A stretch of 63,997 nt of DNA, counting the filler, from Thraustochytrium aureum (Eukaryota), in the NCBI GenBank assembly GCA_012862495.1. It is 8 parts of 6 records of this genome, joined end to end, with 100 filler letters (N's around TTAATTAATTAA, not from the genome) between each part and the next. Parts side by side here need not be neighbours in the genome. Positions count along the whole stretch, not along the records: positions 23,882 to 30,171 come from BLSG01000260.1; 7 more parts are not named here. One strand, 5' to 3'. Positions 23,452 through 30,842 of the stretch are shown here, piece by piece. Within the stretch, counting starts at the first letter, position 1, and the number at the start of each line of letters is the position of its first letter. The position numbers were made by a program, and so were the translations under genes. The notes below the pieces were generated by a model. It had not been told where the DNA came from and ran no database searches. It was given only the letters and a program-made list of their open reading frames with translations.

Positions 23452-24478
23452 AAGATCTGAACTGATCCTACGCTGGCTGCTCGTCCTTGTTGGTAGAAAG
23501 TATTTCTGACAGAGTGTTGATGTTGATCGTTTCCCGTTTGGGCGGCGTGGAGGGAGCGCGTCGGTCCGCTCGCGACAAGCGGCTTGCCGCGCGGCGCTTG
23601 CCCCCGTGCGAGTTCACCGCTCCGCAGAGCGCGCGCGCGAGTTAGTGCGCCAACTGGGCGATGAGCGCCTCCGTGTGCGCCCAGAGCTCGCGCGCAAGTC
23701 CTGCGTCTTGGCAGAGCGGCGCTGCAGGAGCCACAGCCGCGTCATAATAGTAAAGCCCCGTCTCGTTCGCCGTGCCCGGGGNNNNNNNNNNNNNNNNNNN
23801 NNNNNNNNNNNNNNNNNNNNNNNNNTTAATTAATTAANNNNNNNNNNNNNNNNNNNNNNNNNNNNNNNNNNNNNNNNNNNNCATCCTGTCCAAGTCGCTG
23901 CAGAAGTCGGTCTTCGGGACGCTTTGAGGCAGCAAGGATACTCGTGCATTTGCAAATTTGCAGCACAGCTCGCAGGCGACGGGTGGTGAGAGTTTTCGCT
24001 TTTCGTTCTCACACCTGGGACAAACAGCAAGCCAGAAGCCGGTGCGCCATGTTTTTTGTTGTTTTTTCGGCGTTTTTCGCGTCCCACGCGCCAAAACAAA
24101 CCCCAAAATCGTTGAGACCGTGCTCGTGCAATGTGCAGTGGACTGACCGGTCCGGTCCGGGCTCCAGACCGGTCATGTCTCCCGGACGAGTGCTTGAAAA
24201 GGCGGCCGTTGGGTTTGGAGCCGGGCTGCTTTCCTTTGCGCGCTGGCCGCAGAAATGCGGAGCGCAGCGTGTTATGGTGTTGTGCGTGCTTGCGAGCGAG
24301 TCACGTGACGTGAAGGCGATTCACGCGGCGATGTGGCGACGGAAGTGGGTGCCAAGCCAACTTCTCGAGCAGCCTGGGCACCAGCAAAACCTCATCGCGA
24401 ACGGGCTCGAGCAGAGACCGGCAAGAAATAAAGCCAAAGCAAGCTCTCCACACGAGCGAGAGTCAACCAGCAAGCCTG

Positions 24479-27043
24479 ATGACGGCGTGGAGCGCGGCGA
24501 CGCTCGCCGCACTGACAGCGCTTGTCGGGCTCGCCCAGCAAGCCGACGGGCATGGCCTGATGACTGTCCCCAAGTCGCGCAACCAAGTCGCTCACGAAAA
24601 GGGACTCAACTACTGCGAGCACTGCATGAACTCGGGTGGGACGGGCACCGTAATCGCGAACGACGCGAACGGCGGCATCTGGGTGCGCAACTACCCCGAG
24701 ACGAGCGCGAGCGCCGTGCGCCACGGGTTGTGCGGCGACCCTGCTGGGGACGACAAGCACATGTTTGGGGGGTCTATCTACGGCACGCCGCAGGGCGGCA
24801 ACGTGCAAGCCGTGTACGAGCAGGGGGCTTCCATCGACATTACGATCGACGTCCGCACGCACCACCACGGATGGTTTGAGTTTTACTTGTGCGACATGCG
24901 AGGCGGGCCCACCACTCTGACGCAAGACTGCCTCAATGCAAACCAGCTGATGCGCGACCCGGAGGACCCCTCAGAGAGCCCCGTCGACGACAATTACCCT
25001 GGCCGCTTTTACATGATCCCCAAGTGCGCCCCCGGCGCAATGCTGCAGACGATGCGGTACAGGCTTCCCGCAGACCTCACCTGCGAGCACTGCGTGCTCC
25101 AGTGGTACTGGGTGACCGCCAACAGCTGCCACGGGGGCGGGTACGTAGGGGTGGACTTCCCAAACACGTACTCCGACTGCATCGGTGATGGCGGGGCCCG
25201 AGGCTGGGAGCCTCGCAGCGTGACTGGCGCTCGATGCTCCGAGGCGTCCACAACGTACCCGGAGGAGTTTTGGAACTGTGCTGACATCGCCATCATGCCG
25301 GCAGGCTCGCCCACCGCGAGGCCCGCGCCCTCGTCGAGCCCGCCGCCCGTGCCAGCGCCGACAGCCGCGAGCCCGCAGACAGCGCCTACATCGGCCCCGC
25401 CCCCGTCTGGAGGCTGCGCGGCTGCCGTGCCGAGCGGGACGGACTGCTCGACGGCGCCAGACTGCTGCCCGAGCGGCACGCGGTGCTTCCGCAAGAACCA
25501 GTGGTGGGCCGGTTGCCTCGAGTCGTGCCAAGCGGGCTGGGTTGACAACTACGACCAGCTGCCCTGGGCATGCACGCTCCTCAGCGGCGGCAGCGGGGAA
25601 GCGGAATGCGGAGCGGACGCCACGCTCGGCGCTGTCAGCAGCCAGGGCTTTGCCCGCACGCACGGCAAGCTCAAGCTGGATGGCGTGCAGCTTGTGGGTT
25701 CCCGGGGCGAGCCCGTGCAGCTCGTGGGCATGAGCTCGCACGGCGTGCACTGGTTCCCCAACTGCTACACGTTCGAGAGCATCGCTTTCTTGGTGCGGAA
25801 TTGGGGCATCAACGTGTTTCGCGCCGCCATGTACGTCGGCGAGGGCGGGTATGCGTCGAGCCGCGCCGACGCCCAAATCGTCAAGAGCATCGTCGACTGG
25901 TGCGAGCAGCTCGGCATCTACGTTGTCATCGACTGGCACGTGCTGGCGCCGGGCGACCCGAACGCGTGGCTGGACGGCCGGGGCGCGAGCTCGGGGCTTG
26001 CCATCGACTTTTGGACCGAAATGGCGGAGCTTTACAAGGACAAAGACCACGTTCTGTATGAGGTAGCCAACGAACCCAACGGGGTGTCGTGGTCCGTGGT
26101 CAAGGCGTACCACGACGCGGTCATCCCTGCCATCCGCGCCATCGACCCGGAGACGATCATCATCGCAGGAACCACAACGTGGAGCCAAGACATCCACCTT
26201 GCGGCTGCCGATCCAGTCGCCCACCCGTACAACGTCATGTACGCTTTCCATTTTTACGCAGGCACGCACGCCTCACTCTACCAGCGCGTCGTCAGCAACA
26301 TGGACCGGATCCCGATTTTCGTCTCCGAGTGGGGCACTTCTGCAGCATCGGGCGACGGGGGCCCCTTTCTGGACGTTGCGCAAGACTTTCTCGACTTGTT
26401 CTCTGGGGCGGTGGGCTCCTCGCCCGTTCGCCTCAGCTGGGCGCAATGGAGCTTTGCCGACAAGGTCGAGGTCTCTGCGGCGCTGCAGTCTGGCTCGTGC
26501 GCCTCAAGGCAGTGGGACGATACCAAGTGCTCTGGGACTTGGGTTCGCAACTATATCAAGCGTTTGGTTTTGAGCCAGCAGGGCGTGACAAACCCGCCGA
26601 CGCCCCTTGCCCCATCGGCTTCCCCGCCCACGACATTGCCGCCCACGACATTGCCGCCGACTACGATGCCGCCCACGACATTGCCGCCTACGACATTGCC
26701 GCCCACGACATTGCCGCCCACGACATTGCCGCCCACGACATTGCCGCCGACTACGATGCCGCCCACGACATTGCCGCCCACGACATTGCCGCCCACGACA
26801 TTGCCGCCGACTACCGAGAGCAGCTGCGCCCCGCTCTACAGCCAATGCGGGGGCTCCGGCACAAGCCCCAAAACGTGCTGCCAAGGATCGATCTGCCATC
26901 GTCAATCCCAGTGGTACTCGCAGTGCGTGCCTGACCCAGCACGTACGTGCAAGAACGTGCACGAGTCATGCACAAATTCTGCGTGCTGCCCCGCGTACGA
27001 GTGCCGCGGCGACAGATGGTACAAGCAGTGCTACCTAAAGTAG
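24479..27043 (+). CDS. Secreted modular CAZyme: AA15-type LPMO + Cys-rich CBM1-like + GH5 (subfamily 2-like) endoglucanase + PT linker + CBM1-like modules
   Basis: Signal peptide ending ADG then His1 (HGLMTVPKSR); GLCGDP, HHHGWFEF, LTCEHCVLQWYW, EEFWNCADI. GH5 motifs VQLVGMSSHG, IDWH, ANEP, HFYA, SEWG. CBM1-like YSQCGG..CC..QWYSQC. Confidence 0.92.
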   Translation: MTAWSAATLAALTALVGLAQQADGHGLMTVPKSRNQVAHEKGLNYCEHCMNSGGTGTVIANDANGGIWVRNYPETSASAVRHGLCGDPAGDDKHMFGGSIYGTPQGGNVQAVYEQGASIDITIDVRTHHHGWFEFYLCDMRGGPTTLTQDCLNANQLMRDPEDPSESPVDDNYPGRFYMIPKCAPGAMLQTMRYRLPADLTCEHCVLQWYWVTANSCHGGGYVGVDFPNTYSDCIGDGGARGWEPRSVTGARCSEASTTYPEEFWNCADIAIMPAGSPTARPAPSSSPPPVPAPTAASPQTAPTSAPPPSGGCAAAVPSGTDCSTAPDCCPSGTRCFRKNQWWAGCLESCQAGWVDNYDQLPWACTLLSGGSGEAECGADATLGAVSSQGFARTHGKLKLDGVQLVGSRGEPVQLVGMSSHGVHWFPNCYTFESIAFLVRNWGINVFRAAMYVGEGGYASSRADAQIVKSIVDWCEQLGIYVVIDWHVLAPGDPNAWLDGRGASSGLAIDFWTEMAELYKDKDHVLYEVANEPNGVSWSVVKAYHDAVIPAIRAIDPETIIIAGTTTWSQDIHLAAADPVAHPYNVMYAFHFYAGTHASLYQRVVSNMDRIPIFVSEWGTSAASGDGGPFLDVAQDFLDLFSGAVGSSPVRLSWAQWSFADKVEVSAALQSGSCASRQWDDTKCSGTWVRNYIKRLVLSQQGVTNPPTPLAPSASPPTTLPPTTLPPTTMPPTTLPPTTLPPTTLPPTTLPPTTLPPTTMPPTTLPPTTLPPTTLPPTTESSCAPLYSQCGGSGTSPKTCCQGSICHRQSQWYSQCVPDPARTCKNVHESCTNSACCPAYECRGDRWYKQCYLK
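26624..26815 (+). repeat. Coding 15-bp tandem repeat, PPTT(L/M) x12 plus a partial copy; O-glycosylation-type linker
   Basis: GCCCACGACATTGCC-like units are directly visible. Confidence 0.95.
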
Positions 27044-28355
27044 GAAGTACTGCATCGTCGACCTGCGCTCGCCCGCCAGCCTGGCAGAGCTGCGCCGCAG
27101 CCATGTCGCGACTCGAGCCTGCGTCAATTTGTGCCGGTAGATCCGCTCGCGCGCGGCCAGCCACCGAATTGTTCCCATGCCGGGTCGGCAGCCACTGATC
27201 CCAGGTCTAGCTCCGTCAGGCTCGCCAGCCACCCAAGCTTCGCCTGCTGCAAACAAGTAGAGCAAGTAGNNNNNNNNNNNNNNNNNNNNNNNNNNNNNNN
27301 NNNNNNNNNNNNNNNNNNNNNNNNNNNNNNNNNNNNNNNNNNNNNNNNNNNNNNNNNNNNNNNNNNNNNNNNNNNNNNNNNNNNNNNNNNNNNNNNNNNN
27401 NNNNNNNNNNNNNNNAGCAGGCAAGCATTCCTTCCTTTCAGCCAGCCAGCCAGCCTGCGGGACCTGCGTCGAGTAAGTACCGCTCTGTCTACGCAGCCAG
27501 CCATGCCCGCCGCGGCAGGCTGGGGCATCATCGCAATCCTGCCGCGAGCTGAACGCGGCGGGCCGCGTGCCGACCTTCGCATTCGCATCGGGAATCGGGA
27601 CTCTCTGCCGTGGCGTCGGCCATCGGGTACACCGGCGAAACTCTTTCGCCATCCATGACGATGGAGGGCACAAATCCACCAGCAGAGCCATCAGAGAACG
27701 ACAGCCGGCCACCGTTTCAACGCCCGTTCTGAATCTACTTGGCCCTCCTCCGCCCACTCACCAGCCTGCCGGCCTGCCAGCCTGCCTGCGATGGCGAGAT
27801 GAGAGCGAGAGGCAGGCCGCTGAAAGCTCTGAAACCGAACGTTGCGCTTGATTCAGCCCCAGCGGCGCGGAGCGTGCGAGGGATGAACGAACTGGCACTG
27901 GCATGCAAGCAAGCACGGCCGCCTCACATCTCGCGGGAACTCGGCACGGAAGCGCTCCGTGGGCCGCTTTCTTTCTTTCTGCTTTGGCGCGCTGGTTGCT
28001 TGATTGTGCGCTTTTCTTGTTGGGCTTTTTGTCGATTTTTGGTTGTGGTTTTTGTCGATTTTTTGTTGATTTTTGTTTGTTTTTTGTTGATTTTTTGTTT
28101 TTTTTTGTTCTGCGTTTCGATTGAGGATGGATCATCGGTGACGATCATCGATCGATCGCTCGGTCGCTTGGTTGCTCGGTGCCCAGCAGACCCCGAAGAG
28201 CATCGAGAGAGCACCGAACGGGCGATCGATCAACGCAGCGGAGCGAGCGCGAGGAGCAGCAGGCCAGGCAGCCAGGCAGGCAGCCGACGCTCTTGGCGCC
28301 AAGAGCCAGCAAGGCAAGCGAGCAGGCAGGCCGTCGAGGGCGGTGGGCTGAGGCG

Positions 28356-29894
28356 ATGGCGGTGGACGCGGTGAACGTGACGCCGCAGGAGGAGGACGCG
28401 GGACGCAGGAAGGATGGGCTGAGCGACCTGCTCAAGGCGAACGAGGCGACGGAGGAGACGCAAGCGGCGCGGCTGGAGGCGCTCAAGGGCAGGACCTGCC
28501 TGTGGATCACTGCTCCCGTGATTCCGATGATGAGCGCCGTGCTCATGGCACGCGTGCGCTGGGCCAAGCGACAGGGCGTCGTGATCGTCGCAGTGTTCAA
28601 CTCGCCCGAGGACAAGCTGTACTCCATTATGGGCGAGAACGGGCTGATGGACAAGAGCGTATTCGCCGACCTGCACTCCAAGGCCGTGAGCCAAAACGTC
28701 GTGAACGCCGTGCGCGAGGCCAACCTGTCCGTGGATGCTGTTTTTAGCCCGTACGAGCAGTGCCAGACCATCGTGGGCGAGGTGGGCACCCTGATGGGCC
28801 TGCAAGCCAACTCGGCTCGCGCGTACACCGTTGCGCGCTCCAAGGACCTCACGCGCGAGGCCTGCGCTGCCGCCAACGTGCCCACGCCGAAGGCCCGGCC
28901 TTGCTCGACGCGGGAGGAGCTGGCGGCAGCTCTCGAGCACGTCGGCTTCCCCTGCATTCTCAAGCCTTCCTCTGGCGCGGGCAGTGCGGGCGTGCACCGA
29001 GCCAACAACGCGAGCGAGGCAGAGCGCGCCTTTGATCTCATCATCGCCGATGTCGGCAAGAACGCAAACCTGAACTGGAACCCTGGCGTCGAGCGCAACA
29101 CTTGCCTCGTGGAGGAACTCCTGGAGGGGCCCGAGTTCGACACCGACGTCCTCATGTGGGACAGCGAGGCAGTGTACATGCGGACTGTCGACAACTGGCC
29201 TTGCATCCCGCCATACTTTCTTGAGACGGGCTCGAACATGCCCTCCTTGTTCACCCCCGCAGAGGTCAGCGCGCTAGAGTCGTACGCGATCGACTGCGTG
29301 CGCGCCTGTGGGTTCACCTTTGGCTGCTTTCACGTCGAGTCGATCTTGACCAAGGACGGGCCCCGGCTGATCGAGGTCAACGCGCGTCAGGGCGGAGGGT
29401 CCATGCAAGAGTTTAACGAGCTCATGCACGACGTCGACGTGTTCGCCAACTTCTTCATCGGCTCGTTTGGCATCCCCATAAACCCGCCCGTCACGCCGCA
29501 AAAGTTTGCGATGGCCGACTATTCGATCACCTGCCCGGTCTCCGGGATTATCGAGGACATTGACTTTGTCGACCAGGTGCGCGCGCACCCGAGCGTCGTG
29601 CGCTGCACGTCCTTTGTGAAGGCGGGCGACAAGGTCACAGGCTACGACTCGGGCTTTCCAATTTGGCTTGGCGAGATCCTCGTCAAGGGCGAGACTGCCC
29701 AGGAGGCGTGCGATATTGTCAACGAGATTGTCGAGGCTCTCAAGATCAACATTACGCCCGAGGCCAAGGGAGCCGCGCTCTCCGGCTCGGCCGAGCCTCC
29801 TGTCGTCTCATATGCGGCGGCAGAGGCCGCCGCGGAGACCGCCAAGGCCCCAGCGCCGGCCTCCGAGTCAGTCCTCCCTGCCATGGCGCTTTGA
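28356..29894 (+). CDS. ATP-grasp ligase (L-amino-acid ligase / carnosine synthase-like)
   Basis: ARSKDLTREAC, VGFPCILKPSSGAGSAGV, LVEELLEGPEFDTD, GCFHVE..GPRLIEVNARQGG, plus a C-terminal LAL_C2-like segment. Confidence 0.8.
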   Translation: MAVDAVNVTPQEEDAGRRKDGLSDLLKANEATEETQAARLEALKGRTCLWITAPVIPMMSAVLMARVRWAKRQGVVIVAVFNSPEDKLYSIMGENGLMDKSVFADLHSKAVSQNVVNAVREANLSVDAVFSPYEQCQTIVGEVGTLMGLQANSARAYTVARSKDLTREACAAANVPTPKARPCSTREELAAALEHVGFPCILKPSSGAGSAGVHRANNASEAERAFDLIIADVGKNANLNWNPGVERNTCLVEELLEGPEFDTDVLMWDSEAVYMRTVDNWPCIPPYFLETGSNMPSLFTPAEVSALESYAIDCVRACGFTFGCFHVESILTKDGPRLIEVNARQGGGSMQEFNELMHDVDVFANFFIGSFGIPINPPVTPQKFAMADYSITCPVSGIIEDIDFVDQVRAHPSVVRCTSFVKAGDKVTGYDSGFPIWLGEILVKGETAQEACDIVNEIVEALKINITPEAKGAALSGSAEPPVVSYAAAEAAAETAKAPAPASESVLPAMAL

Positions 29895-30842
29895 TTCTAC
29901 CATAAGCCTGCACACCTGTCTGCCTGCCTGCCTGCCTGCGTTGTGAAAGGGAGAGTGAGGGAACTCTTCTGCAGAAGCCCAAGCAAGTTCGGAACTCCCG
30001 GCGGCCGCAGTCGCTGCGGCTTCCCGTGGCCGGCGGCGCTCTTGCATCTCGCACCTCCCCCCGACCAACTCTAGCTAGTAGCGAAAACGAAAAATCGATG
30101 AAGCTTGCCTGTACTCTACGCAGGCAAGGCATGGAAAGCAGTACGACAGGCAAACACGAGCGTCGCCCGAGNNNNNNNNNNNNNNNNNNNNNNNNNNNNN
30201 NNNNNNNNNNNNNNNTTAATTAATTAANNNNNNNNNNNNNNNNNNNNNNNNNNNNNNNNNNNNNNNNNNNNAGTGAATCACGTCTAACGTTGAGTTCTTT
30301 GAATTCGGCGAAAAGTTCAGCATCAATGGCGTATATGAGCAACCCGATGCTGGCCCACCCCGCCTCACCATACGGGAGACCATTTTTCCTGAATATGCGC
30401 CGGGAAGTTCGCTTGACGATGTTGCACGCAGTTCTCCACATGGTAGCCCTTCTCTTGTTGGAACCTGGAGCTCACCAGGCCACCGGTCTGTAGAGAGAGA
30501 GGAGGATCACCCTTGCTTCATGTCCTACGAACCTACGAACCGAGGGCAGGTCACGGATGAAGAAGGGCCCTTGAGAACTCTGGGCCTTGTGCTTGGGCGC
30601 TAGGACTCGTGTGCTTGGAGTACCTCTGCCCTCCTCGGTCGGTGCCTCCCCTCTTTTCCTCTTGTTGTTGTCTCGCTCTTCGTTTGGGGTCTGCCGGAGC
30701 CTCGGACTCGCTGCTTGGTCTCACACCTATTTCATAGGCCGACACCTAAGTGATAGACAAGAGGCCTCCACCTTTGTGATAGGGGCGTCACCTATTTGAT
30801 TGGCAAGCACAGGAACTGGTCAGCCCACATTTAGTCCGAGGC

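Follow-up and report, generated by a model that had tools for sequence, protein, structure and literature searches.

Among described lytic polysaccharide monooxygenases (LPMOs) of family AA15, TdAA15A is a C1-oxidising enzyme that acts on both cellulose and chitin and boosts GH6, GH7 and GH9 cellulases (PMC5823890), whereas TdAA15B and AaAA15A are chitin-specific and have an axial Phe where the cellulose-active TdAA15A has Tyr (PMC5823890, PMC8393829). The partners named for AA15 are CBM1, CBM14, GH18 and GH19 (PMC5823890), and fusions to GH9 and to GH18 are already reported (PMC8615602); GH5 is not named as a partner in the available portions of PMC5823890 or PMC8615602, a scope that applies to all papers cited here by PMC number. 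Labyrinthulomycetes are counted as marine decomposers, yet two papers on their carbohydrate-active enzymes (CAZymes) name no LPMO: AA15, AA10 and monooxygenase have no mention in the available part of PMC10101102, which reports secreted GH5_2 genes in cellulase-producing labyrinthulomycetes, or in the main text of a Labyrinthula genome preprint. Here we describe a gene in a 63,997-nucleotide stretch of DNA from Thraustochytrium aureum (the window; assembly GCA_012862495.1) whose predicted product joins an AA15 LPMO to a GH5_2 cellulase and CBM1-type modules. An earlier reading of this DNA without database searches (the sequence-only reading) had proposed such a fusion and named bacterial AA10-GH5 enzymes as precedent, and these are indeed in print: the Fig. 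2 legend of PMC3526467, on modular GH5 proteins, includes a former-CBM33 module. LPMO-hydrolase fusions are already known, and AA15-GH5_2-CBM1 is a variant within them rather than a separate category.

The gene is a single open frame of 854 codons at 24479-27043 (+ strand, as are all its features below), uninterrupted as the sequence-only reading had it, free of N, and read without introns as signal peptide, AA15 domain, linker, 8-Cys module, GH5_2 domain, second linker, CBM1 and a CBM1-like module. Pfam recognised LPMO_10 (residues 25-270, E 3e-18), Cellulase (408-657, E 2e-50) and CBM_1 (786-813, 17.5 bits) in the 854-aa protein. The predicted signal peptide (aa 1-24; 24479-24550), with a hydropathy peak of 2.3 over residues 9-19, ends in A-D-G just before His25, and small residues stand at -3 and -1 before His1 in all 12 fused proteins compared (this one and 11 relatives); secretion is predicted, and leader removal would leave His25 as the first residue. 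A full-length AlphaFold model (14 sequences; predicted local-distance difference test score, pLDDT, 60; predicted template-modelling score, pTM, 0.46) has a well-formed GH5 domain with alternating strands and helices (pLDDT mostly 70-97), leaves the linkers and C-terminal modules below 50, and is uninformative on domain contacts.

The LPMO domain (aa 25-273; 24551-25297) had been called AA15-type, and both sequence and predicted fold bear this out. In a sequence search of solved structures TdAA15A (5MSZ) was the sole LPMO match (1.6e-12), and a 32-sequence profile gave 5.6e-22 for 5MSZ and 6.4e-5 for AA13, with no AA10 chain named at E <1. A structure model of the domain (pLDDT 84.8, pTM 0.88) likewise found 5MSZ best in Foldseek (2.3e-14) and in VIA (Z 20.3, root-mean-square deviation 2.8, 182 aligned), followed by AA13 (Z 14.9) and AA10 (13.5). 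An AA10 identity was rejected despite the Pfam name LPMO_10, solved AA10s scoring Z 10.8-13.5 at 11-22% identity. The assignment to AA15 holds, as the family to which the modelled domain is closest in sequence and predicted fold. In the prokaryotic genome collection GTDB, searched with two peptide patterns, none of 61 candidate stretches was related to this LPMO clade.

When aligned with TdAA15A (residue numbers per PMC5823890), His129 (24863-24865) corresponds to the copper ligand His91, Phe264 (25268-25270) to Tyr184 and Thr127 to Ala89. His1 (His25, 24551-24553) and the EEFWNCADI motif (262-270) lie where the sequence-only reading had put them; the second His cluster that it noted, HHHG, is present at 128-131, and it is refined in that, of its three His, H129 alone matches the copper ligand. 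All 32 aligned relatives share H129, E262 (the counterpart of TdAA15A residue 182) and F264, His1 is kept in all 28 that reach the N-terminus, and Thr occupies the Ala89 site in 12 of the 32. Phe264 provides the axial aromatic residue of an AA15, a family in which Phe is accepted at this site as well as Tyr (PMC5823890, PMC8393829).

For the GH5 domain (aa 386-697; 25634-26569) the best solved matches were Bacillus-type Cel5A endoglucanases, including 1a3h and 2a3h (6.6e-79), while PDB entries named mannanase or endoglucanase H matched at 1e-7 or worse. As 2A3H is a GH5_2 representative (PMC3526467), the subfamily named by the sequence-only reading stands, and so does its description of the domain as complete, with NEP at 531-533 and SEWG at 616-619. 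Its sequence places it in subfamily GH5_2 with a predicted (beta/alpha)8 clan-A fold and both catalytic glutamates present, the acid/base Glu532 (26072-26074) and the nucleophile Glu617 (26327-26329), accompanied by R448, H487, N531, H591, Y593 and W657. Most of GH5_2 is endo-beta-1,4-glucanase, and a minority comprises EC 3.2.1.132 and bifunctional cellulase/chitosanases (PMC3526467). In a midpoint-rooted GH5 tree of 61 rows, from which near-copies and second domains were left out, as were some of the prokaryote-like rows, the domain falls inside a 34-row clade with support 100/100, and the eight active-site positions are conserved in 33-34 of its 34 rows. Its named members are from Cymbomonas, Diplonema, Flectonema, Pelagomonas and Aureococcus, and the remaining rows are presumably eukaryotic as well. 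All but two of the rows outside this clade are prokaryote-like, which makes it plausible that the clade arose from bacteria.

Canonical CBM1 modules follow the pattern QCGG...C...C...(W/Y)YSQC with three flat-face aromatics. The sequence-only reading had seen CBM1-like modules at the C-terminus, and of these the first is near-canonical and the second degenerate: against a local profile of the relatives' CBM1 modules, aa 783-817 (26825-26929; Y787, W812, Y813, Q815) score 28.3 bits and the 6-Cys module at aa 824-852 (26948-27034) scores -0.7. Only aa 783-817 follow the canonical pattern, with Y787, W812 and Y813, and neither aa 313-366 nor 824-852 do. The C-terminal pair is 49% identical to those of P0144 and P0002. 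The 8-Cys module (M1; aa 313-366, 25415-25576) appears to be a lengthened CBM1-like knot containing a WW pair, scores 10.5 bits in the local profile and might also serve in binding; it is 61% identical to its counterpart in P0144, of the cluster of P0004, and 48% to that in P0008, with weaker copies in diplonemid proteins, and its best entry in the ESM Atlas (0.84) belongs to no named family and is a lead at most. Linker 1 (aa 274-312; 25298-25414) is rich in P, S, T and A, with pLDDT mostly <50 in the full-length model, and linker 2 (26570-26824) contains the PPTTL repeat noticed earlier, a PPTTL/PPTTM tandem array of a 15-bp unit repeated 12.3 times at 26624-26808.

The sequence-only reading had suggested an architecture search for AA15 with GH5, and this established that the fusion is real and less singular than it had appeared. 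Relatives were clustered at 90% identity, and among 120 matches listed of 268 at least 13 other clusters (P0002, P0004, P0007-P0017), one of them public (Cymbomonas), combine an AA15-like domain with a GH5_2 of the same clade as here; P0144 and P0008 have M1 as in the T. aureum protein. Binding modules in the 13 clusters are Pfam CBM1 in six, CBM2 in three, CBM4/9 in one and CBM5/12 in one, with no named CBM in two. The whole architecture, including the 8-Cys module, recurs at locus L002 on a separate 8.2-kb contig with different neighbours. Among the 80 metagenome loci that matched the LPMO best, eight have LPMO and GH5_2 in one open reading frame (ORF), six with the same clade and two with another, leaving aside L062, where the two lie in overlapping frames; in these loci 31 LPMO ORFs carry CBM1 versus eight with GH18. 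Of 1816 representatives at 50% identity, the top 150, many of them fragments, include four with GH5_2 and one with another GH5, and close LPMO relatives are also joined to GH9, GH45 or CBM1 alone. From these sequences, AA15-GH5_2 is a recurring fusion, as a minority form. No paper describing it was found in the literature searched, in which subscription journals are thinly covered. Two other architectures were encountered: P0013, L010 (98-835) and L017 (176-916) carry AA15, GH18 and GH5_2, three catalytic domains in one chain, and in P0125 and L011 (308-1078) a close AA15 relative is followed by an EGF module and then a large domain without a Pfam name, which from its sequence might be GH8-like.

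AA15 is not the sole LPMO family joined to this GH5_2 clade. Fourteen of its 34 rows bear AA15-like domains, and eight further proteins (P0019, P0021, P0024, P0025, P0027, P0028, P0030, P0031) join a GbpA/CBP21-like AA10 to the same clade; the LPMO domain of P0019 matches GbpA at 2e-51 and has no AA15 row. Three of these eight are in the tree, where they nest near the diplonemid Flectonema with modest support (91/72), and the carriers of AA10-GH5_2 are likely diplonemids. Two of the eight also have GH18, and the group lies on contigs of 0.46-1.8 Mb. An AA13-like domain, putative in P0034 (which adds GH18), accompanies the same GH5_2 clade there and in two pelagophyte proteins, Pelagomonas calceolata CAH0366520.1 (P0322) and Aureococcus anophagefferens KAK7253611.1 (P0308), whose sole LPMO match is AoAA13 (7.7e-28 and 4.5e-24, respectively). 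As AA13 is described as starch-active (PMC8615602), a cellulase partner is unexpected. The N-terminal domain of P0041, fused to the same clade, has a weak AA9 match (4.5e-4); P0026 and P0036 have His1-type N-terminal domains there without a Pfam match, and for P0026 no LPMO was found among 60 of 61 PDB rows.

On the LPMO side, a quick tree of 64 AA15 domains requires at least six changes across its starred branches to account for the 14 GH5_2-fused domains, whose sisters are joined to GH19, GH45, GH18 or no hydrolase. A single co-inherited origin of the AA15-GH5_2 fusion was rejected for the LPMO half by the approximately unbiased (AU) test (p 1.2e-7 with the 14 rows together; p 6e-76 for the 11 closest rows held together, a group picked after tree inspection). 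The trees show domain shuffling, which is compatible with repeated gains or with one gain plus losses and swaps; for one GH5_2 clade to be paired with LPMOs of three families, fusions or swaps must have occurred three times or more. This pattern, too, was not found in the literature searched.

We consider it probable, though well short of certain, that the T. aureum protein is a one-chain oxidative and hydrolytic cellulase with both halves directed at cellulose, because GH5_2 and CBM1 are both present, CBM1 or CBM2 occurs in nine of the 13 fused relatives, and TdAA15A is cellulose-active and boosts cellulases. Cleavage of the leader after Gly24 would free His25, which with His129 is predicted to bind one copper; the CBM1, perhaps with the two other Cys modules, would anchor the chain on crystalline cellulose, CBM1 being described as cellulose-specific (PMC5823890, PMC8393829). 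The reduced copper site would then oxidise C1 of surface chains, as in TdAA15A, and create nicks, and the GH5_2 barrel would cut the beta-1,4-glucan so loosened, Glu532 serving as acid/base and Glu617 as nucleophile, as is usual in the family. With two long Pro/Thr linkers the domains may act as tethered independent units that keep the LPMO on its substrate, and CBMs and substrate proximity are known to guard LPMOs from self-inactivation (PMC7658087). Tethering could thus let one open-water cell bring both activities to a single particle of algal or plant detritus.

Several observations weigh against a cellulose-directed LPMO, and they lend themselves to other readings. The axial position holds Phe, like that of the chitin-specific TdAA15B and AaAA15A and unlike the Tyr of TdAA15A; within starred clades, sister LPMO domains are joined to GH19 (P0044, P0124), and those of other relatives to GH18; P0013 combines AA15, GH18 and GH5_2, as do L010 and L017, and P0017 has CBM5/12; and a chitin-type AA10 is also found fused to this GH5_2 clade, from which it follows that the GH5_2 partner does not determine the substrate of the LPMO. 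The protein might accordingly serve two substrates, with the AA15 oxidising chitin only and the GH5_2 cutting cellulose or mixed glucans in mixed marine detritus, without synergy on one polymer. We regard this as rather unlikely: this protein and most of its fused relatives carry CBM1 or CBM2 as binding modules, and cellulose-active AA10s with an axial Phe exist, so that this residue is no strict rule. The axial Phe and the existence of chitosanases among GH5_2 enzymes (PMC3526467) would also suit an enzyme for chitin and chitosan, its LPMO acting on chitin and its GH5_2 as a chitosanase, but the minority standing of chitosanases in the subfamily, the naming of the top solved relatives as endoglucanases and the presence of CBM1 make this quite improbable. 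It also tells against the cellulase reading that aa 783-817 miss the Pfam gathering score (17.5 versus 20.6 bits) and are hence CBM1-like rather than a curated member. A further unfavourable point is the Thr that replaces Ala beside the copper site. Together with the long insertions of the domain (249 aa versus 195 in TdAA15A) and the report that AA16 enzymes boost other LPMOs without cleaving (PMC10088020), it could indicate that the AA15 binds copper without cleaving polysaccharide, as an oxidase that supplies H2O2 or as a module that binds surfaces on behalf of an ordinary cellulase; given the invariance of the His brace, E262 and the axial aromatic across the aligned relatives, we hold this to be improbable.

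It is very unlikely that assembly fused separate LPMO and cellulase genes into a chimera, the risk that the sequence-only reading had named for checking. Suspicion is raised by the window being a stitched pseudo-scaffold: an N-flanked TTAATTAATTAA occurs in it seven times (14521, 23826, 30216, 38900, 46938, 54472 and 62560), and with the N runs it appears to mark joins between contigs, so gene order across these is not real synteny and the contig of the gene itself would span about 23882-30170. The frame, however, is open and without N, and contigs from two different studies together span it from the LPMO end to the CBM1: one of X2 (25264-25509) bridges the LPMO end, linker 1 and M1, and one of X1 (25416-27260) bridges M1, GH5 and the C-terminal modules with a 135-bp in-frame skip. 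Among the listed contigs only that of X2, possibly the source sample, crosses linker 1, and none of X1 covers 25368-25415, a hole that in itself proves nothing. The recurrence of the domain order in homologues (the 13 other clusters, two with M1, and locus L002) is the stronger argument. The GC content at third codon positions (GC3) is nearly equal in the LPMO (0.83) and GH5 (0.82) parts and fits that of seven other in-frame ORFs in the window (0.72-0.89), for which reason the gene looks native to its genome.

The 135 bp missing in frame from contigs of X1 and X4 correspond to nine repeat units of linker 2; an intron was rejected as their explanation, the ends being AC..CC and the length exactly nine units. 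X1 also has five extra bases after 27035 and X2 four fewer at 27042, by which only the last residues would change. These differences in the linker repeat and at the 3' end may be alleles or assembly effects. X1, X3 and X4, from one study guessed to be RNA, have contigs over the gene and its neighbour and little in between; contig coverage was dropped as a sign of expression, the DNA run X2 likewise having a hole at 27780-28257. The one clear neighbour on the contig is an ATP-grasp/L-amino-acid-ligase-like ORF (28356-29894, +) with 15 matches at E <1e-40, of which the best named are from Mucochytrium quahogii (58% over part) and Hondaea fermentalgiana (51%), the latter carrying the name carnosine synthase 1; three EukProt proteins match at 38-39% and others at up to 62%. 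From these matches, a labyrinthulomycete host is likely.

A secreted LPMO-GH5_2-CBM1 chain would, if borne out, give labyrinthulomycetes an oxidative route into crystalline cellulose. The protein further provides a natural experiment on two questions, whether an LPMO tethered to an endoglucanase is an advantage or a drawback and whether an AA15 with axial Phe is confined to chitin, and the three LPMO families associated with one GH5_2 clade supply matched natural constructs for both. Taken jointly, the data allow a broader reading that we offer tentatively, as possible but short of probable: that marine microbial eukaryotes possess a widespread undescribed class of one-chain LPMO-cellulases in which one GH5_2 clade was joined repeatedly to at least three LPMO families, that the T. 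aureum protein would be both the first labyrinthulomycete LPMO described and a Phe-axial, cellulose-active AA15 with in-chain synergy, and that the pelagophyte AA13-like enzymes would not act on starch.

Compared with known systems, the LPMO half shares with TdAA15A (5MSZ), TdAA15B and AaAA15A a His1 after a signal peptide (predicted here), a second His in H-x-G, an EE-aromatic-x-NCAD end and a Cys-rich beta-sandwich, but differs from TdAA15A in its long insertions, an identity of 26-31%, Phe for Tyr184, Thr for Ala89 and the GH5_2 partner. The hydrolase half matches GH5_2 endoglucanases (Bacillus-type Cel5A 1A3H/2A3H and Thermobifida E5) at E about 1e-79 and shares all eight active-site residues checked, but lies in a separate eukaryotic clade and follows an N-terminal LPMO. 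Among eukaryotic proteins, Cymbomonas KAK3288067.1 joins a distant AA15-like domain to the same GH5_2 clade, a Karlodinium protein in the cluster of P0295 has AA15-like and GH5 domains in one chain with a GH5_2 from another clade, and Creolimax CFRG2165T1 has AA15-like and GH5 domains with three CBM2, its GH5 without a match to the T. aureum GH5_2 at E 1e-10; their sources give only hypothetical protein, cellulase or an identifier. Bacterial AA10 (CBM33)-GH5 enzymes likewise unite an LPMO and a GH5 in one secreted chain, from which the T. aureum protein is set apart by an LPMO of family AA15, CBM1-type modules and a eukaryotic host.

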